Assembly (NCBI GenBank): GCA_036496585.1
Contig: DASXLB010000004.1
Span: 112,929 to 176,928, forward strand
Direction: 5' to 3'
DNA length: 64,000 nt
Origin: Vicinamibacterales bacterium
GTDB taxonomy: Bacteria > Acidobacteriota > Vicinamibacteria > Vicinamibacterales > 2-12-FULL-66-21
The notes beneath the pieces are model-generated. The model was given only the letters and a program-made list of their open reading frames with translations. It was not told the DNA's origin and ran no database searches. A program made the translations under genes and the position numbers. Of the stretch, positions 2,719 through 64,000 are shown piece after piece (positions within the stretch are counted from its first letter, which is position 1; every line of letters starts with the position of its first letter).

Positions 2719-2724
2719 GCCCCG

Positions 2725-2753
2725 ACGCTACCCCTTCTCATCTTGGCTGTCAA
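2725..2753 (-). promoter_or_regulatory. Sigma70-like promoter of the PadR gene: -35 TTGACA (2753-2748), 17-nt spacer, -10 TAGCGT (2730-2725), 6 nt to ATG
   Basis: The reverse strand reads TCACATCTTGACAGCCAAGATGAGAAGGGGTAGCGTCGGGGCATG. The -35 is a perfect consensus with optimal spacing, and the -10 fits TANNNT. Only 6 nt separate the -10 from the start codon, implying a leaderless mRNA. Confidence 0.55.
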
Positions 2754-2760
2754 GATGTGA
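2736..2760. promoter_or_regulatory. Inverted repeat CATCTTG-N5-CAAGATG (perfect core 2739-2757; 10-bp arms with 1 mismatch over 2736-2760), candidate PadR operator
   Basis: Read directly from the sequence. It overlaps the -35 and spacer of the PadR promoter and lies in the divergent region toward the VOC gene at 2796. Confidence 0.45.
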
Positions 2761-2795
2761 GCCGCAAGAGGAGCCGGATCGTGGTGAAATAGGGC

Positions 2796-3188
2796 GTGGC
2801 CCTCGCCCATTTCACACTCGCCACCCCGGACATCGACCGGACCGCCGCGTTCCTGGAGCGGACGCTCGGCTACGCCCGCAAGCGGCTGCCGCCCAACGTG
2901 GTGGGCGAAGCCATCTGGCTCGACATCGGCGGCGGCCAGGAGCTGCACGTGCTGCACGTGCCGGGCTTCGCCATCTCCGCGTTCGAGGCGGAGTACGGCC
3001 GGCACGTGGCGCTCTTCCATCCCCGGTCGGCCTTTCCGGCGCTGAAGGCCCGGCTGCTCGGTGAGGGGGGCGTCCTGATCGATCCGATCCGGCCGACGCC
3101 GTTCGAGCGGTTCTTCTTCCGCGAGCCGGTCAACGGCTACGTCTTCGAGATCATCGATCTGGAACGCGCGTCGCGAACGAGCGAGTGA
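2796..3188 (+). CDS. VOC (glyoxalase/bleomycin-resistance/dioxygenase) family protein
   Basis: 130-aa track ORF with GTG start. The sequence HFTLATPDIDRTAAFLERTLGY...ELHVLHV...HVALFHP...GYVFEIIDL is typical of VOC-fold proteins. Confidence 0.75.
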   Translation: MALAHFTLATPDIDRTAAFLERTLGYARKRLPPNVVGEAIWLDIGGGQELHVLHVPGFAISAFEAEYGRHVALFHPRSAFPALKARLLGEGGVLIDPIRPTPFERFFFREPVNGYVFEIIDLERASRTSE

Positions 3189-3227
3189 CGCTGCCGGGGA
3201 GCCCGCAGGGCGACGCCCCGCTGATGA

Positions 3228-3617
3228 CTAGCGAGCGAGCCATTTGGACCAGTAGAACGTCATCGGCACCGGCCCGGTGTTGGTGATGCCGTGCAGCACG
3301 TCACCGGCGCAGTACATCATGTCGCCGGGGCCCACCTGGGTCGTCACGCCGGCGCACTCGATCTCGCCGGTGCCGCTCGCGATGGTCAGCGTCTCCTCTT
3401 CCGGATGCCGGTGCGGCGGATGCGGGCTGGCGCCAGGCTCGAGCACCGCCATGCCGGTGCACATCCCGCCCAGCATGTCGGTCGGGCCGTTGTAGTGCAC
3501 GAAGACCCGGCAGCCTGGATGGAGCTCGGCCGGCACGGCGTCGATCGTGATGACACCGTCCTGCAGTTTCGCCGCGGTGGTCGCCGCGTCGACTTTGGCG
3601 TTGGGGGTTTGAGCCAT
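3228..3617 (-). CDS. Cupin domain protein
   Basis: C-terminal 129 codons of track ORF 3228..3761. Cupin motifs GASPHPPHRHPEEETLTIASGTGE and GDVLHGITNTG. I moved the start to ATG 3617 (MAQTPNAK) because the upstream 48 codons overlap the 5' end of the divergent gene at 3658. Confidence 0.8.
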   Translation of the reverse strand: MAQTPNAKVDAATTAAKLQDGVITIDAVPAELHPGCRVFVHYNGPTDMLGGMCTGMAVLEPGASPHPPHRHPEEETLTIASGTGEIECAGVTTQVGPGDMMYCAGDVLHGITNTGPVPMTFYWSKWLAR

Positions 3618-3644
3618 GGGTGAAATTCTATAAGAGGTCGGAGG

Positions 3645-3650
3645 TAGTAT
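3645..3650 (+). promoter_or_regulatory. -10-like box TAGTAT, 7 nt upstream of ATG 3658
   Basis: Fits TANNNT. A GGAGG sits 13 nt upstream of the ATG (long spacing), so leadered versus leaderless is ambiguous. Confidence 0.3.
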
Positions 3651-3657
3651 CGCCACC

Positions 3658-5868
3658 ATGACCGAGCTCACCCGGCGTGCGTTCCTGCAGACGACGGCTG
3701 CGGCCGGCGCGTTCGCGTCGGTCGGATTCACGGACGCGTCCGCCGCACAGCCGCCCGCCACGTGGTTCGACCGGCCAATGCGCTGGGTTCAGCTGACGCT
3801 GGTCGAAAACGATCCCGGGCGATTCGACCCGCAGTTCTGGCTCGACTACTTCGGGCGTCTGCACGCCGACGCCGCGACCCTGAGCGCCGGCGGCATCGTC
3901 GCCTACTACCCGACCGACGTGCCGCTGCACCATCGCAGCGCCTGGCTCGGCGACGGGGATCCGTTCGGCACGCTCGTCAAGGGCTGCCGCGCGCTCGACA
4001 TGAACGTGGTCGCGCGCGTCGATCCGCACGCCGTGCGCGACGAGGTCCGCCAGGCGCATCCCGACTGGATCGCGGTGACGGCCGACGGCCAGCCGCGCCG
4101 CCACTGGGCGAACCCCGACCTGTGGGTCAGCTGCGCGCTCGGCCCCTACAACTTCGACTTCATGGATCGCGTCAATCGCGAGATCGTCGCCAAGTACGCG
4201 GTCGACGGCGTGTTCGCGAATCGCTGGGCGCCGCAGGGGGGCGACTGTTACTGCGTGCACTGTCAGGAGAACTTCCGCCGCGCCGCCGGCCTCGCGCTGC
4301 CGCGCACGACCGATCCGCGCGATCCGGTGCGGCGCCGCTTCGTCGAGTGGCGCGTGGCACGCCTGACCGAGCTGTGGCAGCACTGGGACGCCAGTATCCG
4401 CGGCGTCCGCGCCGAAGCCCGCTTCATTCCGAACGGCCCGCCCGACATGAAGACGGCGGCGGAGCTTGCCGACATCCAGTTCGCCGACTTCCAGGCCCGC
4501 CGCGGGCTGACGCCGCCGTGGGCGAACGGCCGCCGCGCCAAGGAGTTCCGCGCCGTGATGGGGCGCAAGCCGGTCGCCGGCATCTTCAGCGTCGGTCTCG
4601 AGGAGCCGTATCGCTGGAAGGACTCGGTGCAGACCGAGCCGGAAGTGCAGCTCTGGGTTGCCGACGCCACCGCCCACGGCATGCGCCCCTGGGTGACCAA
4701 GTTCTCGGGCGTCGTCTACGACCGGCGCTGGCTGCCGATCGTCGAGCGCATCTACGACTGGCACTACCGGCACGAGCGCTATCTGCGCAACGAGCGCTCG
4801 CTCGCCCGCGTCGCGCTGCTGCACTCGGAACAGACCGAGGCGTTCCACCCGGGGATGGCGGACGGGGCCCGCCACGCGGATCACGTGCTCGGCATGTACC
4901 AGGCGCTGGTCGAGGCGCGCGTGCCGTTCGACATGGTGCACGAGGCGCTGCTCACGCCCGATCGCCTCGATCAATACCGGCTGCTGGTGCTCGCCGACGC
5001 GGCGGCGCTGTCGGTGCCGCAGTGCGAGGCGATTCGCCGCTATCTGCAGCGCGGCGGCAGCCTGATCGCGACGTTCGCCACGTCGCTCTTCGACGAGGTG
5101 GGTGTGCAGCGCCCCGATTTCGCGCTCGCCGACGTCTTCGGCGTCTCGTACGGCGGCCGTGTCGAAGGACCGATGCACAACTCCTATCTGGCGCTCGAGT
5201 CGGGAGCGGACGGCCGCCGCCATCCGATCCTCGCGGGTCTCGAAGGGACGCCCCGCATCATCAACGGTGTGTTCCGCCTCGACGTCCGCCCGGCCGGGTC
5301 AGACCGGGGTCAAACGGGGGTCAGACCCGCGTCTGACCCCGGTCTGACCCCGGCGCCCCTGACGCTCATTCCGCCGTATCCCGATCTGCCGATGGAGGAC
5401 GTCTACCCGCGGGTGCCCCACACCGACACGCCGGGTGTCTACCTGCGCGATCTCGGCCGCAGCCGCGTCGTCTATTTTCCGTGGGACATCGACCGGACGT
5501 TCTGGGACGTGCTCGCCGTCGATCACCTCACACTGTTGAAGAACGCGGTGACGTGGGCGGCGAACGGACCGTCACCGGTGACCGTCGACGGCCCGGGCGT
5601 GCTCGACGTCGCGATCTGGCGACAGGCGGCGTCGACGACCGTGCACCTGGTCAATCTCACGAACCCGATGATGATGAAGGGGCCGTTGCGCGAGGCGATC
5701 CCGGTCGGTCCGCTGCACGTGCGCGTGCCGCTGACCGACGGCCGTCGTCCGTCGAAGGTCTCGTTGCTGACGGCCGGCACCGCCGTGCCGGTCCGCATCG
5801 AGAACGGCGTCCTGCTGGTCGACGTGCCGTCGGTGGCCGTGCACGAAGTGATTGCGATCGACGACTAG
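3658..5868 (+). CDS. TAT-exported GH42-like / putative glycoside hydrolase with beta-galactosidase-trimerisation-like C-terminal region
   Basis: 736-aa track ORF. Twin-arginine signal MTELTRRAFLQTTAAAGAFASV. The CYCVHC cluster resembles the CxCxxC zinc site of GH42 beta-galactosidases. Family call is from motif recollection only. Confidence 0.7.
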   Translation: MTELTRRAFLQTTAAAGAFASVGFTDASAAQPPATWFDRPMRWVQLTLVENDPGRFDPQFWLDYFGRLHADAATLSAGGIVAYYPTDVPLHHRSAWLGDGDPFGTLVKGCRALDMNVVARVDPHAVRDEVRQAHPDWIAVTADGQPRRHWANPDLWVSCALGPYNFDFMDRVNREIVAKYAVDGVFANRWAPQGGDCYCVHCQENFRRAAGLALPRTTDPRDPVRRRFVEWRVARLTELWQHWDASIRGVRAEARFIPNGPPDMKTAAELADIQFADFQARRGLTPPWANGRRAKEFRAVMGRKPVAGIFSVGLEEPYRWKDSVQTEPEVQLWVADATAHGMRPWVTKFSGVVYDRRWLPIVERIYDWHYRHERYLRNERSLARVALLHSEQTEAFHPGMADGARHADHVLGMYQALVEARVPFDMVHEALLTPDRLDQYRLLVLADAAALSVPQCEAIRRYLQRGGSLIATFATSLFDEVGVQRPDFALADVFGVSYGGRVEGPMHNSYLALESGADGRRHPILAGLEGTPRIINGVFRLDVRPAGSDRGQTGVRPASDPGLTPAPLTLIPPYPDLPMEDVYPRVPHTDTPGVYLRDLGRSRVVYFPWDIDRTFWDVLAVDHLTLLKNAVTWAANGPSPVTVDGPGVLDVAIWRQAASTTVHLVNLTNPMMMKGPLREAIPVGPLHVRVPLTDGRRPSKVSLLTAGTAVPVRIENGVLLVDVPSVAVHEVIAIDD
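5296..5351. repeat. REP-like nested palindromic element: three GGGTCA(G/A)AC units followed by two inverted GTCTGACCCC units, in-frame inside the GH42-like CDS
   Basis: Sequence is GGGTCAGACC GGGGTCAAAC GGGGGTCAGACCC GC GTCTGACCCC GGTCTGACCCC. The core GGGGTCAGAC-CCGC-GTCTGACCCC (5317-5340) is a perfect 10-bp stem. A second 10-bp tier (5306-5315 / 5342-5351) has 1 mismatch. Both strands translate to near-identical peptides in the ORF track (GQTGV[KR]RGSDPRLTPV). Confidence 0.8.
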
Positions 5869-7876: not shown

Positions 7877-7879
7877 CGG

Positions 7880-11694: not shown

Positions 11695-12867
11695 TTACCG
11701 GCTCTTCCGCGCCCGGATCGTCACCTTGTAGTTGTTCTCCGCATTCAGGTTGACGAGCGAAACGAAGGCGCGTCCATTGCGGTCGGTGCCGATCGTGGCC
11801 GACTGCGACACGCCCGACACCTCCCAGCCCTTTGGCAGTACGACCGTATTGCGCAGCCCCTTCAGGGTCCGCTGGAAGACGAGCTCGCCTCCGACGAGTG
11901 TGTAGCTGGGCGCCTTCACAGAGCCGGTCAGCTTCAGGTGGGCGCTCTGGCGGTCGTCGGTGATCGGGACCTCGAGTTTTGCAAACGTCGCCCCTTTGTC
12001 CTTGACGATCGACAACTCGTGCGCCGTGTCGAGATCGGTCACCTTCAGATCCCGCAGCTCGAGGTAGGACAGTGAGTCGAGCCGCGCGCGCGGGCCCTTG
12101 CGATAGTCGCTGTAGATCTGCTCGAGGGCGATCTGCCCGGACTCGGGCGCGTCGAGGTCGTAGAGCGTCTTGACGTCATCGAAGAACATGTCGTCGAACG
12201 GCGACGGCGTGAAGGCCGCCGCGGTAGGTCGCGCATGGATCGTCAGCGGATTCGACTGGCCGCTCGGATTGGCGAAGGCGAGCTTCAGCCGCCCGTCGGC
12301 CGTGGTCGAGAGCTGCGCGGCGACGTCAGACGAGATGAACGCGTAGCCCTTCGGCAGGATCACGCCGAGGCGGTAGCCGGCCAGGCTGCGTACCCAGACG
12401 ACGTCCGTGCCGTCCATCATGTAGGTACGGGCGTCCTTGTAGGTCTTGTACACGAGGATCCGGCCGATGCCGCCTTCCGGCACGGGATGAACGAGCGTGG
12501 CGCGGATCTGGTGGGCGTCAGCCTCCCCTGGCACCGGTTCGTACGTGAACGTGAGCGGCCGGCCGGTTCGCGGGTCGTAGACTTCGACGCCGCTGCCTTC
12601 GCTGCCGCCGCGCGTCGCGTTCACCATCTCGGTCGCGCCGGCTCTGGCGGTCTCGAAGAGGTAGCGGATCCGGAACGCCTCGCTGCCCGGCTCGAGAATC
12701 GCGTACTCGGTATACGCGTCCTGCGTGAAATAGCGGCTGACCGGTGCGCTCGGCCGGAGCGAACCGTCGGGATTGAGGCCGCCGGGGAACGGCTGACTGC
12801 CGCGCTGCGCGCTCAACAACGCCACGCTGACGAGTGCGCCGGCCGTGACTGTCATCCATCTCGACAT
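11695..12867 (-). CDS. Secreted hypothetical protein with internal two-fold duplication
   Basis: 390-aa track ORF with signal peptide MSRWMTVTAGALVSVALLSAQ. Both halves end with the related segments LGVILPKGYAFISSDVAAQLSTTADGRLKLAFANPSGQSNPLTIHARP and NTVVLPKGWEVSGVSQSATIGTDRNGRAFVSLVNLNAENNYKVTIRARK. I do not recognise the family. Confidence 0.75.
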   Translation of the reverse strand: MSRWMTVTAGALVSVALLSAQRGSQPFPGGLNPDGSLRPSAPVSRYFTQDAYTEYAILEPGSEAFRIRYLFETARAGATEMVNATRGGSEGSGVEVYDPRTGRPLTFTYEPVPGEADAHQIRATLVHPVPEGGIGRILVYKTYKDARTYMMDGTDVVWVRSLAGYRLGVILPKGYAFISSDVAAQLSTTADGRLKLAFANPSGQSNPLTIHARPTAAAFTPSPFDDMFFDDVKTLYDLDAPESGQIALEQIYSDYRKGPRARLDSLSYLELRDLKVTDLDTAHELSIVKDKGATFAKLEVPITDDRQSAHLKLTGSVKAPSYTLVGGELVFQRTLKGLRNTVVLPKGWEVSGVSQSATIGTDRNGRAFVSLVNLNAENNYKVTIRARKSR

Positions 12868-12873
12868 CCGGGC

Positions 12874-12879
12874 AGGATA
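12874..12879 (-). promoter_or_regulatory. -10-like box TATCCT, 6 nt upstream of ATG 12867
   Basis: The reverse strand reads TATCCT GCCCGG ATG, with no SD. This is part of the recurrent leaderless pattern. Confidence 0.35.
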
Positions 12880-12968
12880 GCATCGCCAGCGAATGACACG
12901 CTGCGACGCCAGGAGTATCGTCTACGGATGCCGGTGCCTCCCCACGCTCCTGGGACAGGAGTGAGCTC

Positions 12969-15979: not shown

Positions 15980-18808
<2,829 letters not shown>

Positions 18809-18830: not shown

Positions 18831-19730
18831 CTACGGCAGCGTCTTCCGGACCGCGACGTATCCCGTCCGCGCGCGGACTTTGTAGGCCGGGTTCGTCGCC
18901 CGCACGCGGATGCTGTGGTACTGGCCGTCGCCGGGGTGCGGCGAGGAATAGCCGATCACGTATTGACTATTGAGCTCGTCGGCGATGTTCTTGGTCGCCA
19001 CGTCGAGATCCTCGGTCGCGCGGACGAGCTCGGTGTGGCCGCCGCTCTGGCTGGTGATCTCGTTCAGGGTCTCCAGGCTGACCCGGTGCGCGATGTACTG
19101 CGGCTCCGGCGTATCGATGGCGATCGCGTAGACGAAGGCGTCGCTGCGGACCAGCGCCGGCCGCAGGTCGTGCAGCGTGACGTCGCTCGCGGTATCGGCG
19201 CCGTCGGTGACGAGCACGAGCGCCGCGCGCTCGCGCGGCCGGTTCTGGAGGTAGGGCATGGCGGCGACCATCGCGTCGTAGATCGCGGTGGAGCCGGTCG
19301 GCCGCAGCGCCGTCAGCGAATCGTGGACGCCGGTCGCGTCGCTCTGCCAGCCGAAGAGCAAAGCCGGCTGGTGGTTGAACGTCATCAGAAAGAACGCGTC
19401 GGCCGGATCGAGGAGCGAGGTCAGGAAGCGCTCCACCGCCCCCTCGGCGTCCTTGATGCGGCGGCCGAACATGCTGTCGCTGATGTCGAGCAGCAGACCC
19501 AGGCCGAGCGGGACCCGCTCGTTGGTGAACTGCGAGATGGGCACCGGCACGCCGTCCTCGGAGACCTCGAATGCCTCGCGCGGCAGCCCGGTGACCAGCT
19601 TGCCGTTCTCGTCGCGCACCGTCGCGGTCGCCACGGTGAGCTCGACGCTCGACCTCAGCCGCGGCCGTTGTTCCGCGCCAAGGCCCACCGCCGTGATCAC
19701 CGCCAGCGCCGCCACCGTCCACCGACTCAC
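18831..19730 (-). CDS. VWA domain protein of the acidobacterial TIGR03436-like type
   Basis: Track ORF 18831..19787. Typical N-terminal beta region (VELTVATATVRDENGKLVTGLPREAFEVSEDG), MIDAS-like LLLDISDSM, and C-terminal LNSQYVIGYSS...HSIRVR. Start tentatively moved to GTG 19730 (VSRWTVAALAVITAVGLGA signal peptide); ATG 19787 remains possible. Confidence 0.82.
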   Translation of the reverse strand: MSRWTVAALAVITAVGLGAEQRPRLRSSVELTVATATVRDENGKLVTGLPREAFEVSEDGVPVPISQFTNERVPLGLGLLLDISDSMFGRRIKDAEGAVERFLTSLLDPADAFFLMTFNHQPALLFGWQSDATGVHDSLTALRPTGSTAIYDAMVAAMPYLQNRPRERAALVLVTDGADTASDVTLHDLRPALVRSDAFVYAIAIDTPEPQYIAHRVSLETLNEITSQSGGHTELVRATEDLDVATKNIADELNSQYVIGYSSPHPGDGQYHSIRVRATNPAYKVRARTGYVAVRKTLP

Positions 19731-19816
19731 CCGTCCAGTGTAAACCCCGCCGCCGCTTCCGCCCGTGGCACAATAGCCCGGGGCCATTACGGCACCCCAC
19801 GGTCGAGGAGGACGCG

Positions 19817-20850: not shown

Positions 20851-22299
20851 TCACCGGCGCCGGGTGTAGGCGACCAGCTTCGACTCCGTCATCTCTTCGA
20901 TCGCATAGCGGACGCCTTCGCGCCCGAGGCCCGACTGCTTGACGCCGCCGTACGGCATGTGGTCGACGCGGAACGCCGAGCTGTCGTTGACGATGATGCC
21001 GCCGGCGTCGATGCCGTCGATGGCGGCGTCGATCACCCGCTGGTCATGGCTGAAGATCCCCGCCTGCAGGCCGAACTCGCTGTCGTTGGCCGCCGCGATC
21101 GCCTGGCCGATCTCGTCGTAACGGGTCAGCGACACGACCGGCCCGAACAGCTCCCGGCAGTTCACTCGGGCGGTCGCCGGCGCTCCCTCGATCACCGTCG
21201 GTTCCCAGACCGACCCGTGCCGGACGCCGCCGGTCAGCACCACCGCGCCGGCAGCACGCGCCTCGTCGATCCATTCGCCGATTCGGTCCGCGGCGGCCGC
21301 GTCGATGACCGGCCCGACATCGGTCGACTCGTCGAGCGGATCCCCAATCTTCAGGGCGCGCGCGCGGGCGACGATCGCCGCGCTGAACGCGTCGTAGATC
21401 GCCGCGTGCACATAGATGCGCTGCGCCGAGATGCACGACTGCCCGGCGTAGGCGAAGCCGCCCGATGCGACACGTTCGGCGGCGTGGCCGGCGTCGGCGT
21501 CGGCGTGCACGATCACCGCGGCGTTGCCGCCCAGTTCCAGCGTGACGCGTTTGCGGCCGGCGCGCGACTTCAGCATCCAGCCGACCGGCGCGCTTCCGGT
21601 GAAGGTGAGCAGCTTGATCCGATCGTCTTCGACGAGGTGCAGCGTGTCGTCGTTGCTGCAGGGGAAGACGGCGAGCGCGTCGGGCGGCCAGCCCGCGTCG
21701 AGGATGAGGCGCCCGAGCAGCAGCGCCGAGACCGGCGTCCGCGGACCGGGCCGCAGGATCAGCGGGTTGCCCGCGGCGAGCGCCGGCGCCACCTTGTGCG
21801 CGACCAGGTTCACCGGAAAATTGAACGGCGTGATCCCGACGATCGGTCCGAGCGGCACCCGCCGGACCAGCGCCTCACGCCCCTCGGTGCCGGGCAGCCA
21901 GTCGAGCGGCAGGATTTCGCCGGTGATGCGCCTGGCCTCCTCGGCGCCGACGCGCAGCACGAACGCGGCGCGGTCGACCTCGACGCGTGCGAGGGCGATC
22001 GGTTTGCCGGCTTCGAGCGCGATCGTCTCTGCGAACTCGTCGCGGCGCTGCGCCACCGCCGCCGCAATCCGCTCGAGCACCGCCGCGCGCTTCCACGAGG
22101 GCAGCCGTCTGGTCGTCTCGAACGATCGGGCCGCGGCGGCGATCGCCCGCTCGATTTCGGCGGCGCCGGCGCTGTGGACCGTCGCCACCAGCGATCCGTC
22201 GTACGGCGACCGCACGTCGAACGTCGAGCCCGTCTCGACCCGGGTGCCGTGCAGCAGAATTCCGAAGTCTCCGAGCCGGCTCGCCGCGCTGGTTCCCAT
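20851..22299 (-). CDS. NAD(P)-dependent aldehyde dehydrogenase family protein
   Basis: Track ORF 20851..22347. Motifs ELGGNAAVIV and catalytic Cys in YAGQSCISAQRIYV. Start set to ATG 22299 (MGTSAASRLGDFGILLHG), which has TACCAT 7 nt upstream. Confidence 0.9.
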   Translation of the reverse strand: MGTSAASRLGDFGILLHGTRVETGSTFDVRSPYDGSLVATVHSAGAAEIERAIAAAARSFETTRRLPSWKRAAVLERIAAAVAQRRDEFAETIALEAGKPIALARVEVDRAAFVLRVGAEEARRITGEILPLDWLPGTEGREALVRRVPLGPIVGITPFNFPVNLVAHKVAPALAAGNPLILRPGPRTPVSALLLGRLILDAGWPPDALAVFPCSNDDTLHLVEDDRIKLLTFTGSAPVGWMLKSRAGRKRVTLELGGNAAVIVHADADAGHAAERVASGGFAYAGQSCISAQRIYVHAAIYDAFSAAIVARARALKIGDPLDESTDVGPVIDAAAADRIGEWIDEARAAGAVVLTGGVRHGSVWEPTVIEGAPATARVNCRELFGPVVSLTRYDEIGQAIAAANDSEFGLQAGIFSHDQRVIDAAIDGIDAGGIIVNDSSAFRVDHMPYGGVKQSGLGREGVRYAIEEMTESKLVAYTRRR

Positions 22300-22306
22300 G
22301 ACCCCG

Positions 22307-22312
22307 ATGGTA
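22307..22312 (-). promoter_or_regulatory. -10-like box TACCAT, 7 nt upstream of ATG 22299
   Basis: The reverse strand reads TACCAT CGGGGTC ATG, with no SD. Confidence 0.3.
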
Positions 22313-24689: not shown

Positions 24690-25760
24690 CTACTTCGGCG
24701 GAATCGCCGCGATTGCGTCGGTCAGCGGCCCGCGCAGCTCGTCGTAGACGCGGTGCAGCGTCCAGTCGACGAAGTACACCTTGAACTGTTCGTTCAGCTT
24801 CGGATCGTCTTTGGTGATCGCAACCATACGATCGTGCAGGCGGGGGAAGATCTCCTCCTTTGCCTGATCGGGGTCGAGGCCGCGTGCCTGCGCGTCCCGG
24901 CCCTCCTTCAGCAGCTCGCGCAACCCGTCGATGGTCGCGTGCAAGAGTGCCTTGTCGCGCAGCGGCTCGCCGTGGCCGGGGACGATGACCACGGGGTCGA
25001 GCGCGTCGAGCCGCTCCAGCGTCTTCAGCCAGCCGGATGGATACGAGCTCAGGCCGAAGGTGATCGGATTGACCAGCAGATCGCCGCTGACGACGATCCG
25101 GTCGTCGGGCAGGTACAGGAAGGTGTCGCCGGGAGTGATCGCGCGATCCTCGTGCAGGACCTGGACGCGGCGGCCGCCGAGATCGAGGTCCAGCCGCGTC
25201 GTATAGGTCGTGTCGGGCAGGACGAGACGTGCGTTCTCCTTCTGCTCGAGGAAGAAGCGGTCTTCCGCGGCGAGCGGCGCCAGCGTCGCATCCGTCTGCG
25301 CGCGCTTCTCGAGCGAGGCGACGTAGTCGGGCAACTGCTGTTCGAGTCCGGGGCGGTTGAATTCGATCGCCGGCCCTGCCATCAGGGTCTTGGTCTTCTC
25401 GTGCGCGATCACTTTCACGCCCGGAAACGCGGCCGTGTAGGTCTCGGTGCCGTACCAATGGTCCCAGTGCCAGTGCGAGTTGACGACGTAGCGGATCGGC
25501 TTCGGCGTGAGCTTCCGGATCTCGGCGAGCACGCGTGCCGCCGCTGCCGGCGTGCCGTTGGTGTCGAACACGAGCACGGCGTCGCGGCCGACGATCGCGA
25601 CCGAGTTGCCGTCGAGGCCGACGTCACCGTACGGCTTCGACACGAACGCATGGACACCCGTCGCGACGTCGATGCGCTGCGGCGCCGGGCGGACATAGTC
25701 GGCGCGCGGCAGCGCCGCCGCGCCGGTGATGAGCAGGATCCCGATCGATGGCCGTCGCAT
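24690..25760 (-). CDS. MBL-fold metallo-hydrolase, secreted
   Basis: 356-aa track ORF. Signal peptide MRRPSIGILLITGAAALPRA and the HxHxDH motif NSHWHWDHWYG. Confidence 0.88.
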   Translation of the reverse strand: MRRPSIGILLITGAAALPRADYVRPAPQRIDVATGVHAFVSKPYGDVGLDGNSVAIVGRDAVLVFDTNGTPAAAARVLAEIRKLTPKPIRYVVNSHWHWDHWYGTETYTAAFPGVKVIAHEKTKTLMAGPAIEFNRPGLEQQLPDYVASLEKRAQTDATLAPLAAEDRFFLEQKENARLVLPDTTYTTRLDLDLGGRRVQVLHEDRAITPGDTFLYLPDDRIVVSGDLLVNPITFGLSSYPSGWLKTLERLDALDPVVIVPGHGEPLRDKALLHATIDGLRELLKEGRDAQARGLDPDQAKEEIFPRLHDRMVAITKDDPKLNEQFKVYFVDWTLHRVYDELRGPLTDAIAAIPPK

Positions 25761-25767
25761 GCGCCTT

Positions 25768-25773
25768 TATAAT
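25768..25773 (+). promoter_or_regulatory. Consensus -10 box TATAAT, 6 nt upstream of ATG 25780
   Basis: The sequence reads TATAAT TCAGGG ATG inside a 19-bp divergent intergenic region. There is no SD, implying a leaderless transcript. The complementary strand offers TATAAA 5 nt from the MBL start. Confidence 0.45.
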
Positions 25774-25779
25774 TCAGGG

Positions 25780-27111
25780 ATGCCGCTGCTCGTCACGCTT
25801 CTGCTGGCGTTGGTCACAAACCTCGACGCCCAGGCGCCGGCGGCGCTGTCCGACGCCGACTACACGGCGCACGCGGCGGCGGTGCTCGCCTCGATCGCCT
25901 CGAAGAACTACGCCGGCGTCGAAGCGCAGTTCGACGACCGGATGAAGGCCGCGCTGCCGCCGGGACGCTTCGGCGCCGGCTGGGATTCCCTGCTCATGCA
26001 GGCAGGCGCGCTCAAGCAGTGCGGCAGTCACGTGCGGGTGCGCGCGATCGACGACAAGCACATGGTCATCCAGACCTGCGAGTTCGAGAAAGCCAAGCTC
26101 GATTTCCAGATCGCCTTCGATCCCGCCAATCGGATTTCGGGCCTGGCGTTCCGTCCGGCGGCCGCCGCGGCCGCCCCCTATTCGCCGCCGCCGTACGCGA
26201 CGCCATCGTCGTACGGGTCGAGCGACGTTACGGTCGGGTCCGGCGAATGGGCGCTGCCAGGGACGCTGACGCTGCCCAACGGGGCAGGGCCGTTTCCCGG
26301 CATCGTGCTGGTGCACGGATCGGGGGCGAACGATCGTGATGAAACGGTCGGGGCGAACCGGCCGTTTGCCGATCTGGCCGCCGGCCTCGCCTCACGCGGC
26401 ATCGCCGTGCTGCGCTACGACAAACGGACGCGCGTCTACGGCCCGAAGATGGCGGCGCTGAAATCGTGGACGGTCAAGGAGGAGGTCGTCGACGACGCGC
26501 TCGCGGCGGCGGCGGTGCTGCGCGCGACCCCCCGCGTCGATCCCGCGCGCGTCTACGTGCTCGGACACAGCCTCGGCGGCATGCTGATCCCGCGCATCGC
26601 CTCCGCCGATCCCAAACTGGCCGGCCTCATCGTCATGGCCGGCGCCGCGCGGCCGCTCGAGAACGCCCTCGTCGAGCAGACGAAGTACCTGGCGGAGGCC
26701 GACGGCACTGTGACGCCAGACGAACAGAAGCAGATCGACGCCACGTCGATGGTCGCGGACCGGATTCGCGCGCTGACCCCGGCGGATGCCGCGGCCGGCC
26801 AGTACGTGTTGAACGCGCCGGCGTCGTACTGGGTAGACCTGAAAGGCTTCGACGCGCCCACCGCCGCGAAGACGCTCGGGCAGCCGTTCCTTGTCCTGCA
26901 GGGAGAGCGCGACTACCAGGTGACGATGAACGACTTCGCGCGCTGGAAAGCGGCGCTCGCCGGCCGATCGAACGTCGTCTTCCATTCGTATCCGGCGCTG
27001 AACCACCTCTTCCTGCCCGGCACCGGCAAGAGCCTGCCGGCCGAGTACGAACAGCCTTCGCACGTCGACCAGGCGGTCGTCGACGACATCGCCGCCTGGA
27101 TCAAGCGGTAG
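25780..27111 (+). CDS. Secreted alpha/beta hydrolase with N-terminal DUF3887-like domain
   Basis: Within track ORF 25726..27111. Start set to ATG 25780 (MPLLVTLLLALVTNLDAQAP signal peptide). Nucleophile elbow is LGHSLGG. Confidence 0.85.
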   Translation: MPLLVTLLLALVTNLDAQAPAALSDADYTAHAAAVLASIASKNYAGVEAQFDDRMKAALPPGRFGAGWDSLLMQAGALKQCGSHVRVRAIDDKHMVIQTCEFEKAKLDFQIAFDPANRISGLAFRPAAAAAAPYSPPPYATPSSYGSSDVTVGSGEWALPGTLTLPNGAGPFPGIVLVHGSGANDRDETVGANRPFADLAAGLASRGIAVLRYDKRTRVYGPKMAALKSWTVKEEVVDDALAAAAVLRATPRVDPARVYVLGHSLGGMLIPRIASADPKLAGLIVMAGAARPLENALVEQTKYLAEADGTVTPDEQKQIDATSMVADRIRALTPADAAAGQYVLNAPASYWVDLKGFDAPTAAKTLGQPFLVLQGERDYQVTMNDFARWKAALAGRSNVVFHSYPALNHLFLPGTGKSLPAEYEQPSHVDQAVVDDIAAWIKR

Positions 27112-27572: not shown

Positions 27573-28493
27573 CTACTGCGGTCCGACGCCCGTGACGCGC
27601 GTCTTCACGGCGTAGAGCCCGGTCCGCGCCGTGATGAAGAGCGTCCGGTGATCGCTGCCGGCGAAGGCGACGTTGGCCGGCGCCTGCTCCACTGGGATGC
27701 TCTCGATCTCCGTGCCGCTCTTGCCGAAGACGTGGACCGCCCGGCCTGACGTCAGGTAGACGTTCCCCTCGGAATCGATCGTCATGCCGTCGGATCCCAT
27801 GTCGCAGAACGGCCGCTTGTTGGCCAGGGTGCCGTCGGCGGCGATGTCGTAGACGAACGTCTTGCGGCCGCGGATGTCCGACACGTAGAGCGTGCGGCCG
27901 TCCGGCGTGCCGATGATGCCGTTGGGCTGCTGCATGTCGTCGATGATGCGCGTCATTTTCTTGGTCGCCCGCGAATAGACGTAGACGGTTTCCGGACTCT
28001 CTTTCGGTCCGCGGTTCCACCACTTGCGGGCGTAGTACGGATCGGTGAAATAGATCAGGCCGGTCTTCGGATTGACCCAGACGTCGTTGGGTCCGTTGAG
28101 CAGCTTGCCTTCGTAGGTGTTGAACAGCGGCGTCACCGTCTTCGTCGCCGGATCGATCGACCACATCTCGTTCTTCTCGTCGGCGCAGGCGATCAGCTGG
28201 CCGTGCTCGTCGAACGTCATGCCGTTGCTGTAGCCGCTGGGCTGCATGAAGGTGGTCAGCTTGCCGGCCGTGTCGTACTCCATGATCCGGTTGTTGTCCT
28301 GATCGACGAAAAACAGATTGCCCCGATCGTCCGACGCCGGACCTTCGGTGAAGATGAAGTCGCCGGCGATCTTGTCGACGGTCGCGCCTGGCGCGAGCAC
28401 GCTCGGGGCGCCTGCCTGTGGCGCGGCGGTGAACACGGCCCGGGCGGGAACAAGGGAACCGGCGGCGAGCAGGAGGAGAACGGCGCGTTTCAT
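27573..28493 (-). CDS. SMP-30/gluconolactonase/LRE family beta-propeller protein, secreted
   Basis: C-terminal 306 codons of track ORF 27573..29219. Start set to ATG 28493 (MKRAVLLLLAAGSLVPARA). Typical motifs FTEGPA, NGMTFD, LNGPNDV, PNGI, SDGMTIDSEGNVY. TATAGT lies 6 nt upstream. Confidence 0.88.
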   Translation of the reverse strand: MKRAVLLLLAAGSLVPARAVFTAAPQAGAPSVLAPGATVDKIAGDFIFTEGPASDDRGNLFFVDQDNNRIMEYDTAGKLTTFMQPSGYSNGMTFDEHGQLIACADEKNEMWSIDPATKTVTPLFNTYEGKLLNGPNDVWVNPKTGLIYFTDPYYARKWWNRGPKESPETVYVYSRATKKMTRIIDDMQQPNGIIGTPDGRTLYVSDIRGRKTFVYDIAADGTLANKRPFCDMGSDGMTIDSEGNVYLTSGRAVHVFGKSGTEIESIPVEQAPANVAFAGSDHRTLFITARTGLYAVKTRVTGVGPQ

Positions 28494-28499
28494 GAACGC

Positions 28500-28505
28500 A
28501 CTATA
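28500..28505 (-). promoter_or_regulatory. -10-like box TATAGT, 6 nt upstream of ATG 28493
   Basis: The reverse strand reads TATAGT GCGTTC ATG, with no SD. Confidence 0.42.
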
Positions 28506-52156: not shown

Positions 52157-52162
52157 TAATAT
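52157..52162 (+). promoter_or_regulatory. -10-like box TAATAT, 6 nt upstream of ATG 52169
   Basis: The sequence reads TAATAT AGCGAC ATG, with no SD. Confidence 0.42.
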
Positions 52163-52168
52163 AGCGAC

Positions 52169-52507
52169 ATGGCTCCACTCATCCACGCCATGACCACCAC
52201 CGCCAACGCCCTGGACGGCTACCGCACGACGAAGTCGCTCGGAATCGTCCGCGGCATCACCGTGCGATCGCGCTCGCTGATCGGGTCGATTGGCGCCGGC
52301 CTGCAGACACTGGTCGGCGGCAACATCACGCTGCTGACCGAGTTGTGCGAACTGGCGCGCACCGAGGCGTTCGATCTGATGCTGCAGCACGCCACCGAAG
52401 TCGGGGCCAATGCGGTCATCGCCGTCCGCTACGACGCGACCGAGGTGATGAAGGGGGTGACTGAGGTCCTGTGTTACGGAACCGCCGTCATCGTCGAACG
52501 CACGTAG
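52169..52507 (+). CDS. ybjQ: YbjQ family (UPF0145, heavy-metal-binding-domain-like) protein
   Basis: 112-aa track [33 protein letters not shown]...[23 protein letters not shown] is typical of YbjQ. Confidence 0.85.
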
Positions 52508-56380: not shown

Positions 56381-57238
56381 TCACGCTCTCTGCAATTGCA
56401 CGATCGCCGACCACGGGCGCTTCGGATTGCGCTGCTTCGGCTCCGGCAATGCGGCGAACAGCTTCAGCAGCCAGGGCAGCCGGTTCTGCGTGCGCGCCTC
56501 CTTCAACAGCGACTCGACCCGCACCGGCGTCCAGCCGAGCGGCCGGAAGAAGTCGGGTCCTTCAGCCGGAGCGAACTGGAAAGCGGCGCCGGCGTCGACA
56601 ATCGCCTGTCCGGTCTGCCGCGCCAGCACCTGCAACAAGCCCGGCGAGGCGACGTCGATCACCCAACGGCGGAACGAGGGCTGCGCCGCCACGTCGTGCG
56701 CCAGGGTGCTCACCTGCGCCGGAGACAGATAGATGAGCAGTCCCTCCGTGAGCACCAGCGCGTCGCGCGCGCCGACACTGACGGCAGCGAAGAACGCCTG
56801 CCGCGCCGCTTCGTCTGAGAGATCGAGGCGCACGCGCTCGAGCGCGCAGCGCGGGACGGCGTCGCCGAGCACCGCCTCCTTGTAGTCGAAGATAGCCGGC
56901 AGATCGACTTCGACCCATCGCAGCGCTGCCGGCAGCGGCATGCGGTAGGGGCGCGTGTCGAGGCCGGCCGCGAGATTGACGACGAGATCGACACCGGCGC
57001 CGATGGCGTCCTCGATCATCCGGTCGATCAGCGTCGTGCGGGCCACGAACGCCCAGGCGTTGCGGTCGCCGAACTGCGGAGACTTCGCGATCCGCGCCCC
57101 TCGCTCGCCGGCCAGCGCCCGCGCGTAGGGATCGTGGAAGTGCGCGTCCGGCCTCTCGCTCTCCACCGCCCGGTAGTGGGCGACCCAGACGGCGGTGTCG
57201 GAGATGTTGCGGACCGGGCGGTCGTCCGATGGCTCCAT
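56381..57238 (-). CDS. Class I SAM-dependent methyltransferase (leucine carboxyl methyltransferase / TIGR00027-like)
   Basis: Track ORF 56381..57244. ISDTAVWVAHYRAVESERPDAHFHDPYA...VVNLAAGLDTRPYR. Start moved to ATG 57238, which has TAGACT exactly 6 nt upstream; GTG 57244 is the alternative. Confidence 0.85.
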   Translation of the reverse strand: MEPSDDRPVRNISDTAVWVAHYRAVESERPDAHFHDPYARALAGERGARIAKSPQFGDRNAWAFVARTTLIDRMIEDAIGAGVDLVVNLAAGLDTRPYRMPLPAALRWVEVDLPAIFDYKEAVLGDAVPRCALERVRLDLSDEAARQAFFAAVSVGARDALVLTEGLLIYLSPAQVSTLAHDVAAQPSFRRWVIDVASPGLLQVLARQTGQAIVDAGAAFQFAPAEGPDFFRPLGWTPVRVESLLKEARTQNRLPWLLKLFAALPEPKQRNPKRPWSAIVQLQRA

Positions 57239-57244
57239 CCGCAC

Positions 57245-57250
57245 AGTCTA
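57245..57250 (-). promoter_or_regulatory. -10-like box TAGACT, 6 nt upstream of ATG 57238
   Basis: The reverse strand reads TAGACT GTGCGG ATG. Confidence 0.4.
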
Positions 57251-60984: not shown

Positions 60985-61117
60985 ACGCCTCTTCATTGGC
61001 TCTCGACGGCTTGCTGAAGCCGCTGATCTTGCGCACGAACTGCAGCGACGCCCCCCGTACTTCATCCTCGGTGACGGGCGGTTCGAAATTGAAGAGCGGC
61101 CGGATGTTGCGGCACAT
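60836..61117 (-). CDS. DUF2277 domain protein
   Basis: 93-aa track ORF. MCRNIRPLFNFEPPVTEDEVRGASLQFVRKISGFSKPSRANEEAF matches my recollection of the conserved DUF2277 N-terminus. Confidence 0.85.
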   Translation of the reverse strand: MCRNIRPLFNFEPPVTEDEVRGASLQFVRKISGFSKPSRANEEAFTRAVDEVAAAARTLVDSLTTSAAPRDRAVEAEKAKSRAADRYPPRQRM

Positions 61118-61123
61118 CCTTTT

Positions 61124-61129
61124 ACGTTA
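61124..61129 (-). promoter_or_regulatory. -10-like box TAACGT, 6 nt upstream of ATG 61117
   Basis: The reverse strand reads TAACGT AAAAGG ATG. AAAAGG could alternatively be a weak SD. Confidence 0.3.
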
Positions 61130-61140
61130 ACATCCCGCGC

Positions 61141-62610
61141 ATGCGGATTCAGACTCGACTGCTGGGGCCGGCCGTGGCCCTGGCCTCGACGCCGCGCACC
61201 GCCGCGCTGGCGGTCGCGCTGGCAGCGGCGATCGTCATCCTGCCGGCCGCACAGACCGGACAGTTTTCCACGACCGTCCGCGGCTTCATCACGGTCGACG
61301 CTCCCGGCGTCGCGCTGACGCACGTCCGCGTCATCGACGGCACCGGCGCGCCGGCCAGGGACGATCAGACGATCGTCATCCGCGGCGGCAACATCGCCGA
61401 GATCGGCGACACGGCTCGCGTCAAGGCGCCCGACGGCGCGACGACGATCGATCTCACCGGCAAGTCGGTGATACCGGGGCTCGTCATGGTGCACGAGCAC
61501 ACCTACTATCCAACCGGTCCTGGTGTCTACGGCCAGCTCGGGCTGAGCTTCGCGCGCCTGTATCTGGCCGGCGGCGTGACGTCGATGCGGACGGCGGGCA
61601 ACACGAATGGCGTGATGGACATCGAGCTGAAGCGGCAGATCGACGCCGGCACCCAGGCAGGTCCGTCGATCGACGCGACTGCACCGTACCTCAACGGACC
61701 GCAGGGGATGCTGCAGATGCACCCGCTGAAGGATGCCGAAGACGCGCGAAAGCAGGTGGCCTACTGGGCCGACATGGGATCGACGTCGTTCAAGGCCTAC
61801 ATGCAGATCACACGCGACGAGCTGAAGGCGTCGATCGAAGAAGCGCACAAGCGGAGCATGAAGATCACCGGGCATCTCTGCTCGGTGACGTACTCGGAAG
61901 CCGCGGATCTCGGCATCGACAATCTGGAGCACGGCTTCATGGCCGCGACCGACTTCGTGGCCGACAAGCAACCCGATGTCTGTCCCGGACAGGCGGTTGG
62001 TCAGCGGACGATCGCGGCGCTGGACGAGAACGGCGCCCCGTTCAAGGCGCTGGTGCAGAAGCTCGTCGACAAGCATGTGGCGCTCACTTCGACGCTGACG
62101 GTCTTCGAGACGTTCACCCCGGGCCGGCCGCTGCCGCCGGGTCTCGACGTCCTGCTGCCGGAACTGAAGCAGCAGTTCGAGGCGAACTACGCGCGGACCG
62201 CGCAGAATCCGCAGTCGCTCTACGCGACGCTCTTCCCAAAGGGGATGGCGCTCGAGCGCGCCTTCGTCCGCGCTGGCGGCATGCTCATCGCCGGCACCGA
62301 TCCGACCGGCGGTGGCGGCGTCGTTCCCGGCTACTCGAACGAGCGCCAGCTCGAGCTGCTCGTCGAGGCCGGCTTCATGCCGCTCGAAGCGATCCGGATC
62401 GGCACGCTCAACGGCGCGACGTATCTCGGCCGCGAGGCGCGCATCGGCTCGATTGCGGTCGGCAAGCAGGCGGACCTCGTCGTCATCGGGGGCAATCCGT
62501 CGACGACGATCGGCGACGTGCGGAAGGTCGAGACGGTGTTCAAGCAGGGCGTCGGCTTCGATCCGGCGAAGCTGCGCGCCTCGGTGACGGGGAAAGTTGG
62601 ACTGTGGTAG
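61141..62610 (+). CDS. Secreted amidohydrolase family protein
   Basis: 489-aa track ORF with an N-terminal signal/anchor. ALTHVRVIDGTG...IPGLVMVHEHTYY (metal-binding HxH) and a C-terminal GKQADLVVIGGNP motif. Confidence 0.85.
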   Translation: MRIQTRLLGPAVALASTPRTAALAVALAAAIVILPAAQTGQFSTTVRGFITVDAPGVALTHVRVIDGTGAPARDDQTIVIRGGNIAEIGDTARVKAPDGATTIDLTGKSVIPGLVMVHEHTYYPTGPGVYGQLGLSFARLYLAGGVTSMRTAGNTNGVMDIELKRQIDAGTQAGPSIDATAPYLNGPQGMLQMHPLKDAEDARKQVAYWADMGSTSFKAYMQITRDELKASIEEAHKRSMKITGHLCSVTYSEAADLGIDNLEHGFMAATDFVADKQPDVCPGQAVGQRTIAALDENGAPFKALVQKLVDKHVALTSTLTVFETFTPGRPLPPGLDVLLPELKQQFEANYARTAQNPQSLYATLFPKGMALERAFVRAGGMLIAGTDPTGGGGVVPGYSNERQLELLVEAGFMPLEAIRIGTLNGATYLGREARIGSIAVGKQADLVVIGGNPSTTIGDVRKVETVFKQGVGFDPAKLRASVTGKVGLW

Positions 62611-62629
62611 CTCACAGGAGTATCGACTG

Positions 62630-63703
62630 ATGCTGTTTCAGGCCGTGGCGCTGTCTCTGGTGTTGCAGGCGGGTGGCGGACGCGCGCAGTTCCAGGCGCC
62701 GCCGATGACCGAGTCGGACTTCGTCATCAAGGATTTCACGTTCAACTCGGGTGAGACCCTTCCGGAGCTGCGGATTCACTACCGTACGTTCGGCACCCCG
62801 AAGAAGAACGCCCAGGGCGTTGTCACCAACGCGGTGCTGATCATGCACGGCACGGGCGGGACCGGCGCGCAGTTCGTCGGGCGCGGGTTCGCCGGCGAGC
62901 TGTTCATGCCCGGCCAGCCGCTCGACGCGACGAAGTTCTACGTCATCCTTCCCGACGACATCGGCCATGGCAAGTCGAGCAAGCCGAGCGACGGGCGGCG
63001 CGCGAAATTCCCGAAATTCGGCTACCAGGACATGCTGACCGCGGAGCACGCGCTGCTCACCCGAGGCCTCGGCGTGAATCACCTGCGACTCGTGATGGGC
63101 ACGTCGATGGGCGGCATGCACACGTGGCTCTGGGGCGAGCGCTGGCCCGACTTCATGGACGCGCTGATGCCGCTCGCCAGCGTGCCGGGCCAGATCTCCG
63201 GCCGCAATCGGGTCTGGCGGCGCGTCGTCATCGACGCGATCAGGAACGATCCGGCGTGGCAGGGAGGCGACTACACGACGCAGCCGCCAAGCGCCCGCAC
63301 CGCGGCCGAGATGCTGTGGCTGGTGAGCAGCAATCCGGCGATCCGTTCCCGGAGCGCGCCGACGCTCGCCCAGGCCGATCGAGAAATCGACGCCTACGTC
63401 GCCAACTGGGTCAGGAACAACGACGCCAACGACCAGCTCTATGCGCTCGAGGCCTCGTTCGACTACGACCCGGGCCCGAATCTCGAAAAGATCACGGCGC
63501 CGCTGTTCGCGGTGAACTCCGCCGACGATTTGGTCAACCCGCCGGAGATCGGCGTGCTCGAGAAAGAGATCACGCGAGTGCCCAAGGGGCGCGCCATCAT
63601 GATTGCGTTCAGCGACAAGACGGCCGGCCACGGCACGCATACGCTGGCGGCGGTGTGGAAGGACTATCTCGTCGAGCTGCTGAAGGTGTCGGAAAAGCCG
63701 TAA
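62630..63703 (+). CDS. Secreted alpha/beta hydrolase, homoserine O-acetyltransferase (MetX)-like fold
   Basis: In track ORF 62597..63703, with ATG 62630 (MLFQAVALSLVLQAGGGRAQ). LPELRIHYRTFG...AVLIMHGTGG...GTSMGGMH nucleophile elbow. Confidence 0.82.
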   Translation: MLFQAVALSLVLQAGGGRAQFQAPPMTESDFVIKDFTFNSGETLPELRIHYRTFGTPKKNAQGVVTNAVLIMHGTGGTGAQFVGRGFAGELFMPGQPLDATKFYVILPDDIGHGKSSKPSDGRRAKFPKFGYQDMLTAEHALLTRGLGVNHLRLVMGTSMGGMHTWLWGERWPDFMDALMPLASVPGQISGRNRVWRRVVIDAIRNDPAWQGGDYTTQPPSARTAAEMLWLVSSNPAIRSRSAPTLAQADREIDAYVANWVRNNDANDQLYALEASFDYDPGPNLEKITAPLFAVNSADDLVNPPEIGVLEKEITRVPKGRAIMIAFSDKTAGHGTHTLAAVWKDYLVELLKVSEKP

Positions 63704-63773
63704 CTCAGGTCCGCGTTCACTCGCCACGGCGGCTTCTAGTCGGCCCGACTACTATCGCCTCGCGTTGGTGCGG

Positions 63774-63779
63774 TACAGT
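63774..63779 (+). promoter_or_regulatory. -10-like box TACAGT, 6 nt upstream of ATG 63786
   Basis: The sequence reads TACAGT GGACGG ATG. Confidence 0.33.
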
Positions 63780-63785
63780 GGACGG

Positions 63786-64000
63786 ATGCGACATCGCTCG
63801 AGATTTCTCGTGGGTGCTGCCGTCGTTTGCGCCACCGCGCTCGCGACCGCGCAGGCTCCTGCGACGCGTGCCCCACAACCCGCGTCACGGGCCACGCAGC
63901 CCGCCACCCGCGCCGCCAAGCCCGCTACGGCGCCGCAGATGGCGGCGGTCGATCCGGCGCTCTTCAAGGGCCTCCAATACCGCCTCGTCGGCCCTTCACG
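63786..64000 (+). CDS. Second sortilin/BNR-like secreted protein (paralog of 57321..60023), 5' fragment cut by window edge
   Basis: Not in the track (runs off the right edge). Sequence: MRHRSRFLVGAAVVCATALATAQAPATRAPQPASRATQPATRAAKPATAPQMAAVDPALFKGLQYRLVGPS. It parallels AVDPSLYGALKWRMIGPF at the N-terminus of the 57321 gene. Confidence 0.7.
   Translation, partial: MRHRSRFLVGAAVVCATALATAQAPATRAPQPASRATQPATRAAKPATAPQMAAVDPALFKGLQYRLVGPS

Follow-up and report, generated by a model that had tools for sequence, protein, structure and literature searches.

TANNNT boxes at a fixed distance from start codons point to leaderless transcription units in a 64-kb segment of a Vicinamibacterales genome

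A 64-kb stretch of DNA from a Vicinamibacterales bacterium (contig DASXLB010000004.1 of assembly GCA_036496585.1; hereafter the window) raises the question of why many of its genes carry a hexamer of the form TANNNT 6 or 7 nucleotides (nt) upstream of the start codon, and whether these genes are expressed from leaderless mRNAs. The preliminary description of the window had listed ten such hexamers, eight with a 6-nt spacer (N6) and two with a 7-nt spacer (N7), all of which we found at the positions and offsets given. The window has a G+C content of 69% (A 15.8%, T 15.5%). Its gene map was built from self-trained codon-usage log-odds, Pfam matches, and the gene calls of the Joint Genome Institute (JGI) on near-identical contigs from two JGI soil metagenomes (L001, L158, L159, and L160; L158 differs from the window at 4 of 7956 positions). 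The map holds 54 genes, 34 of them first in their transcription unit and 20 operon-internal, the operon assignment being our own, from strand and gap. Shine-Dalgarno (SD)-like motifs were scored 4-12 nt upstream of the start codon, and all shuffles preserved dinucleotides (n = 100). The source organism is, by its homologues, an uncultured member of the Acidobacteriota, order Vicinamibacterales: several neighbors of the argininosuccinate synthase gene (argG) are syntenic with metagenome-assembled genomes (MAGs) of Vicinamibacterales/Acidobacteriota at 50-70% protein identity, and close homologues of a 489-aa amidohydrolase carry the NCBI name "Vicinamibacterales bacterium". Exact-protein look-ups for the gene at 62627-63703 and for the PadR gene gave no match.

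A count made independently of gene calls gave 12 occurrences of TANNNT-N6-ATG in the window and four of TANNNT-N7-ATG, while each of the spacers 0-5 and 8-30 yields 0-5 occurrences, mostly 0-2, on both strands together. The shuffles gave 2.34 +/- 1.41 N6 matches with a maximum of 5, so that none of the 100 reached the observed 12. The N7 count alone was not significant (4 vs 2.48 in the shuffles), but each of the four N7 matches coincides exactly with the 5' boundary of a coding region. Other start triplets in the window stayed at the background level (TANNNT-N6-TTG, 0; TANNNT-N6-CTG, 2). The offset and shuffle controls that the preliminary description had called for thus left a sharp peak at spacers 6 and 7 only. 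The hexamer itself is strongly depleted in the window, with 102 occurrences on both strands (0.08% of positions) vs about 480 expected from base composition (0.38% of 128,000 positions), and each occurrence is therefore a considerably informative promoter signal in this genome. The earlier estimate of about 0.4% chance matches per site (0.1545 x 0.158 x 0.1545) was sound, and indeed conservative, since the observed frequency is only 0.08%.

The same spacing emerged at the 54 mapped starts, where N6 accounted for nine cases, N7 for four, and every other offset from 0 to 29 for 0-3; against a background of 0.42 per offset, the N6 peak has a Poisson P of about 8e-10. The box-to-start pattern in the window is real. 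Thirteen genes carry it, which leaves the ten cases of the preliminary description correct and its list incomplete, as it had missed 3617(-) and 61141(+), both N7, and 19730(-), an N6 case with a GTG start. Start codons are ATG in 12 of the 13 and GTG in one. All 13 boxes (Table 1) stand before first genes, of which they make up about 38% (13/34), compared with none of the 20 internal genes (Fisher P = 9e-4); relative to all mapped genes in this 64-kb sample the share is 24% (13/54). None of the 13 box-led genes has an SD-like motif, as opposed to 14 of the 41 remaining genes (P = 0.013), in agreement with the earlier statement that box-led starts lack a convincing SD. The six SD sites named in that description as GGAGG-type examples (7243, 7367, 12969, 19817, 19994, and 22478) are all present, although the one at 12969 reads AGGAG.

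Peaks of this kind might reflect chance together with selection bias, the start codons having been picked because they follow a TANNNT. A genome of 69% G+C usually offers several in-frame starts, and 4 of the 16 N6/N7 ATG matches, namely 11455(-), 43578(-), 58715(+), and 12928(+), all N6, are not gene starts, a number close to the chance expectation. However, the peak stands without gene calls and beyond the reach of every shuffle, and the start codons agree with independent criteria. JGI calls place the start at the same codon for 3617, 3658, 22299, 25780, 28493, 52169, 57238, and 61141, and also for the near-leaderless gene at 25760; the codon-usage signal sets in within a few codons of each of the 13 starts; and Pfam domains open at or soon after residue 1 (DUF2277 at residue 1, YbjQ at 8, and PadR at 14). 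The starts that the preliminary description had chosen from the pattern at 22299, 25780, 28493, and 57238 match JGI calls, codon-usage boundaries, and Pfam boundaries alike. Since the spacing is also kept in orthologues whose flanking DNA has diverged (see below), the call-free count, the gene-start profile, and the conservation together refute this explanation, to which we give next to no credence.

Table 1. Positions of the 13 box-led starts and one near-leaderless start in the window.
Gene	Span	Strand	Box	Spacer	Start codon	Remarks
PadR gene	2716..2730	-	TAGCGT 2725-2730	N6	ATG 2718	TTGACA -35; Pfam PadR residues 14-87
Cupin gene	3615..3630	-	TAGAAT 3625-3630	N7	ATG 3617	JGI same 129-aa product
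GHL6/GH42M glycosidase	3645..3660	+	TAGTAT 3645-3650	N7	ATG 3658	JGI same 736-aa product
390-aa protein	12865..12879	-	TATCCT 12874-12879	N6	ATG 12867	No Pfam match
VWA-domain gene	19728..19742	-	TACACT 19737-19742	N6	GTG 19730	JGI start 19715
Aldehyde dehydrogenase	22297..22312	-	TACCAT 22307-22312	N7	ATG 22299	JGI 482 aa, same start
Lactamase_B gene, near-leaderless	25758..25774	-	AATTAT 25769-25774 (no TANNNT)	N8	ATG 25760	JGI 356 aa, same start
DUF3887/alpha-beta hydrolase	25768..25782	+	TATAAT 25768-25773	N6	ATG 25780	JGI 443 aa
SMP-30/gluconolactonase (SGL)	28491..28505	-	TATAGT 28500-28505	N6	ATG 28493	JGI 306 aa
YbjQ_1 gene	52157..52171	+	TAATAT 52157-52162	N6	ATG 52169	JGI 112 aa (L159)
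LCM-family methyltransferase	57236..57250	-	TAGACT 57245-57250	N6	ATG 57238	JGI 285 aa
DUF2277 gene	61115..61129	-	TAACGT 61124-61129	N6	ATG 61117	Pfam profile 1-78 = residues 1-78
Amidohydrolase	61128..61143	+	TAACAT 61128-61133	N7	ATG 61141	JGI 489 aa
Sortilin/BNR-repeat gene	63774..63788	+	TACAGT 63774-63779	N6	ATG 63786	

Some of these boxes sit in very little space: the SGL box lies in the 41-nt gap behind the stop codon of the phosphoenolpyruvate carboxylase gene, and the YbjQ_1 box in a 30-nt gap inside a same-strand gene cluster. The sortilin/BNR-repeat reading frame, which opens near the right end of the window, remains open for 1036 aa in L158.

The upstream regions of the 13 genes have only T1, A2, and T6 of the hexamer in common, and a repeated or mobile promoter element was rejected on this ground. 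A TTGACA -35 element is found only at the PadR gene (17-bp spacer) and an extended -10 (TGn) at 2 of the 13 boxes. Searched for 16-19 bp upstream of the boxes, TTGACA reached a mean best score of 2.54 vs 2.44 at random sites (P = 0.40); a -35 element or an extended -10 as a general part of the signal was therefore rejected, and the identification of the boxes as promoters rests on the -10 hexamer because no -35 consensus accompanies it, a situation also described for high-GC leaderless lineages. The same type of box is also found at an ordinary distance before leadered genes: TAGACT lies 25 nt upstream of the SD-led gene at 7367, and in four relatives the orthologues of 12969, themselves SD-led, are preceded by CGTATAAT. 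This supports TANNNT as the -10 element of this lineage.

An alternative that also dispenses with SD pairing is that the promoters lie further upstream and that the TA-rich hexamer acts in the mRNA as an SD-independent translation signal, an A/U-rich landing site of the kind seen in Bacteroidetes or cyanobacteria. The missing SD in the 13 genes would fit, as would the missing -35, and 27 of the 41 other genes are likewise without a clear SD. A translation signal, however, should also precede internal genes, of which it precedes 0 of 20, and GeneMarkS-2 separates its groups B and C by exactly this feature (PMC6028130): in group B, non-SD leadered initiation of the Bacteroidetes type, the same motif stands before first and internal genes alike, unlike here. 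Moreover, conservation of T1, A2, and T6 with a free middle is the pattern of a sigma-70 -10 element rather than of a generic A/U-rich tract; the same hexamer type occurs at promoter distance before SD-led genes; and promoters further upstream would, for divergent starts only 19-23 bp apart, be pushed deep into the coding region of the neighbor. We therefore regard a translation signal as very improbable.

The -10 hexamer of bacterial promoters occupies positions -12 to -7, and a 6-nt spacer therefore puts +1 on the A of the ATG. We propose that TANNNT is a sigma-70-type -10 element from which RNA polymerase would begin transcription at the first base of the start codon (A or G) or at most one base away from it. 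The resulting mRNAs would have neither a 5' untranslated region (UTR) nor an SD site, and translation would begin at a 5'-terminal AUG, in one case GUG, in the manner of Actinobacteria and Deinococcus. This leaderless mode would serve about 38% of the contig's transcription units (13/34), while the other first genes and the internal genes would be leadered, often with an SD. For the boxes of Table 1 we infer active promoters, transcription start sites (TSSs) at the start codons, and ribosomes initiating on the 5'-terminal codon.

A milder variant holds that the promoters are real but leave leaders of 1-5 nt, at least in the N7 cases and at 25760. Besides the four N7 genes, the 8-nt spacer of AATTAT at the Lactamase_B gene speaks for it, and so do small secondary TANNNT peaks with 12- and 14-nt spacers at SD-less first genes (8651, 18158, 18188, 32046, and 40215; 18158 is argG), which suggest that, beside strictly leaderless starts, there is also a class of very short leaders (5-8 nt) lacking an SD. 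Nevertheless, 9 of the 13 genes have the 6-nt spacer that places +1 on the A of the ATG or the corresponding base of the GTG, and RNA polymerase prefers to start on a purine, which the first base of the start codon (A or G) provides. As UTRs of at most 5 nt conventionally count as leaderless, this variant would be a refinement and not a different mechanism; we consider it unlikely, if far from negligible.

The leaderless reading was further examined in orthologues. Two hydrolase orthologues (L083 and L084; 68-70% protein identity) keep TATAAT-N6-ATG while the DNA further upstream has diverged, and hydrolase orthologues of low-GC phyla have AGGAG-type leaders instead. The SGL orthologue in L084 (86% protein identity) keeps TATAGT-N6-ATG, and the spacing at the hydrolase and SGL genes is retained in contigs at 68-87% protein identity. 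In five MAG loci of Vicinamibacterales (L003, L009, L019, L021, and L023), the VWA orthologue starts with a GTG placed N6 (N7 in L003) behind TACACT or TAGACT. From this conservation we argue that its true start in the window is GTG 19730 and not the JGI start at 19715; the JGI call is probably five codons short, and the gene would be a conserved, GUG-initiated leaderless gene.

Five related genomes fetched around the amidohydrolase (L161, L164/165, L167, L170, and L171; 80-87% protein identity) gave a similar picture. TANNNT-N6-ATG precedes DUF2277 in all five, and TANNNT-N6/N7-ATG precedes the amidohydrolase in L161, L165, L167, L170, and L171; the pattern is kept even where the spacer between these two divergent genes measures 72-73 bp (L167 and L171) vs 23 bp in the window. 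On the 1.96-Mb European Nucleotide Archive contig L170, DUF2277 is inverted and co-directional with the amidohydrolase (9670-9942(+)) and keeps a TAAGCT-N6-ATG of its own, as though promoter and start codon had moved as one unit. Both genomes that have the sortilin gene retain the arrangement (TACAGT-N7 in L164/165, TAGAGT-N6 in L167). For the LCM gene it varies, with TAGGCT-N7 in L167, TAGAGT-N6 in L171, CATACT in L165, and no retention in L170. Additional starts of leaderless type were seen at creatininase genes (L161, L170, and L171) and at an M16 peptidase gene (L167), and in L170 and L171 before an amidohydrolase whose orthologue in the window (53685) is operon-internal. Counted again without gene calls, N6 and N7 matches stood out in close relatives as well: 79 kb contained 8 and 7 (vs about 1.2), and another 43 kb contained 7 and 8 (vs about 1.4).

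Compact divergent gene pairs provided another view of the boxes. The 25760(-)/25780(+) pair is separated by a 19-bp intergenic region, GCGCCTTTATAATTCAGGG, in which TATAAT-N6-ATG on the top strand and AATTAT-N8-ATG on the bottom strand use one common palindromic core, TTTATAATT; the arrangement is kept in L084 with 20 bp between the genes. In the 23-bp region of 61117(-)/61141(+), TAACGT and TAACAT stand back to back with a 2-bp overlap, and between the start codons of 3617(-) and 3658(+), which are 40 bp apart, two boxes lie at a distance of 14 bp. Each of these spacers carries one -10 box per strand, and with lengths of 19, 23, and 40 bp they are too short for a conventional promoter plus 5' UTR. 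A further divergent pair, argG and a methyltransferase gene (18158/18188), has 29 bp between its starts, where TACAGTGTA yields one box per strand, TACAGT and TACACT; their spacers, 12 and 14 nt long, imply putative SD-less leaders of about 6-8 nt.

By sequence, the first three of these pairs resemble the bidirectional sigma-70 promoters that arise from -10 symmetry, for which Warman et al. (2021), as reported in PMC10268837, describe divergent TSSs at distances of 7-25 bp, most often 18 bp. At 25760/25780, where the start codons are 20 bp apart, the boxes have TTTATAATT in common; if AATTAT is the bottom-strand box, its -11A would pair with the -7T of the top-strand TATAAT, and this pairing predicts TSSs 18 bp apart, the modal spacing given there. 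At 61117/61141 the distance between the start codons, 24 bp, lies within the defining range. They differ in that both predicted transcripts would here be leaderless protein-coding mRNAs, while those in that report are mostly antisense or non-coding RNA, and in that the boxes at 61117/61141 overlap by 2 bp rather than by the 5 bp described there.

Besides the absence of a -35 element, several observations weigh against the leaderless reading or its generality. The GHL6/GH42M gene has a GGAGG 13 nt upstream of its ATG, a distance too great for a normal SD, and for the N7 genes, four in number, transcription could begin 1 nt ahead of the start codon. The box is missing from more distant orthologues of PadR (L006), YbjQ (L015), and DUF2277 (L087), those of PadR and YbjQ having an SD-like motif in its place. 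A literature search found no TSS, ribosome-profiling, or N-terminal data for any acidobacterium. In a broader sample of 25 Acidobacteriota/Vicinamibacterales loci fetched via argG (454 kb), N6-N8 counts under a coding-start filter were 8, 10, and 9 vs a background of about 4.5, and a Burkholderiales control showed a mild N6-N8 bump comparable to that of these loci. The high share of box-led genes may thus be limited to a sub-lineage or to this region. In addition, the unfiltered spacer profile of the argG-centred loci was flat, with no peak; no box was found at the orthologue of the 12867 gene in L045 or at a second PadR orthologue in L020; and the 8.6 kb past the right end of the window in L158 contain four transcription-unit starts, none leaderless, three of them with a TANNNT/NANNNT box at least 19 nt upstream and two of these three also with an SD (16033 and 16085). 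The figure of 38% applies to the window together with its close clade, for which most of the sample comes from orthologous loci, and given the flat to mild profile in 454 kb we do not claim a high frequency throughout the phylum or the order.

Taken together, the offset, shuffle, operon-position, SD, and comparative analyses support the coexistence of leaderless and SD-led modes that the preliminary description had proposed, and we put the probability that the box-led genes are leaderless transcription units with a sigma-70-type -10 element, beside SD-led initiation, at roughly 0.85.

How far such an arrangement is already known can be judged from earlier surveys. Zheng et al. (2011; BMC Genomics 12:361, PMC3160421) read a TANNNT situated some 12 bp ahead of the start codon as the signal of leaderless genes, noted that high-GC leaderless lineages show "TAnnnT" with an uninformative middle, and found all three Acidobacteria genomes of their Table 2 positive, with a mean of 13.3% of genes (range 9.7-19.4); their averages were 19% for Actinobacteria and 39% for Deinococcus-Thermus. 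The statement in the preliminary description that the signature is uncharacterised for this lineage consequently holds at the level of the order and for experimental proof, but not for prediction, which covers three of three Acidobacteria (PMC3160421). The architecture, the motif, and their occurrence in Acidobacteria have been known since 2011 and are modelled by GeneMarkS-2, and no new mechanism is involved. The genes reported here agree with those of Zheng et al. in phylum, motif, distance (about 12 bp, counted from the first T), and inference. They differ in that the earlier set comprised three genomes only, not named in the text of that paper, and in that the local share is higher here (13/54 genes, 24%, in a 64-kb sample). 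Our literature search found nothing specific to Vicinamibacterales on leaderless genes.

Group C of GeneMarkS-2 (PMC6028130), in which first genes have a Pribnow box at a distance of 6-8 nt from their starts in 25-50% of operons, comprises 1028 of 4769 bacteria. Like the Actinobacteria (Mycobacterium, Streptomyces, and Corynebacterium) and this group, the window has TANNNT 6-8 nt before first genes, no informative -35, and SDs on remaining genes. The operon share predicted there is 25-50% (PMC6028130), compared with 38% in the 64 kb of the window. Leaderless GUG initiation has a mycobacterial precedent, ATG and GTG both being usable at the 5' end (PMC4633059), which is paralleled here by one conserved GTG case. 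The differences are the phylum, the stronger dominance of ATG (12/13), and the fact that the system described here is known from sequence alone. With Deinococcus-Thermus the window has in common high GC, a TAnnnT box near -10 relative to the start codon, and a large gene share (36-46% there), although that lineage is unrelated, has the higher share, and has been verified experimentally; in D. deserti, 167 of 262 mapped genes are leaderless (PMC6028130).

A wider proposal would be that, in a clade within the Vicinamibacterales (Acidobacteriota subdivision 6), about 35-40% of transcription units produce leaderless mRNAs, and that this clade has conserved GUG-initiated leaderless genes as well as bidirectional promoters of 19-23 bp that make two leaderless mRNAs. 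We advance it tentatively, at somewhat less than even odds. If it is true, the leaderless share of this clade would be at the level of Actinobacteria or Deinococcus, above the 10-19% of genes in the three surveyed Acidobacteria and above the argG-sampled relatives, and efficient leaderless initiation would have been independently gained or retained in a third major soil phylum. The comparative data presented here suggest that an abundant, hard-to-culture group of soil Acidobacteria may rely heavily on leaderless translation, which bears on promoter and expression design and on the reading of metatranscriptomes. For annotation, the -10 box fixes starts that ORF (open reading frame)-based calling leaves ambiguous in this lineage, and it reveals probable errors in existing calls, such as the short VWA start and the missed DUF2277 gene.

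The DUF2277 gene (60836-61117(-)) is a full-length Pfam match (E = 2e-35) left uncalled by JGI on L158 and L159 and on the related L164, L165, and L166. An HTH_25 ORF on the plus strand was called instead, of 274 aa in the clade of the window and 276 aa in L164, L165, and L166; in the window this ORF (60160-60984(+)) shares 149 nt with DUF2277. The plus-strand ORFs of L161 and L167 are about 40 aa shorter, and their overlap with DUF2277 is down to 13 nt (L161) and 4 nt (L167). The convergent overlap may be real, or else the HTH_25 ORF was called too long.

One of the N6 matches away from gene starts lies in 12916-12978(+), where TATCGT-N6-ATG at 12928 opens a 16-codon ORF, MPVPPHAPGTGVSSCG, 41 nt upstream of and overlapping the SD-led GTG 12969. 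A leaderless upstream ORF of 16 aa was considered and set aside as probably accidental, as relatives have CGTATAAT at this place and no ATG at +1. TATCGT itself probably serves as the promoter of 12969.

Among the operon-internal genes, many lack a recognisable SD 4-12 nt upstream (11163, 22968, 27557, 31192, 49511, 50947, 52537, and 55367), and several of these starts overlap or abut the preceding stop codon, suggesting that translational coupling rather than SD pairing may be common in this organism.

Finally, the argG product (16794-18158(-); compared across loci L003-L082) shows 81-88% protein identity to those of Vicinamibacterales/Acidobacteriota MAGs and is equally similar to those of many Burkholderiales, among them Cupriavidus, Variovorax, Rhizobacter, and Achromobacter. 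This identity across phyla suggests either horizontal transfer or mis-binned contigs.

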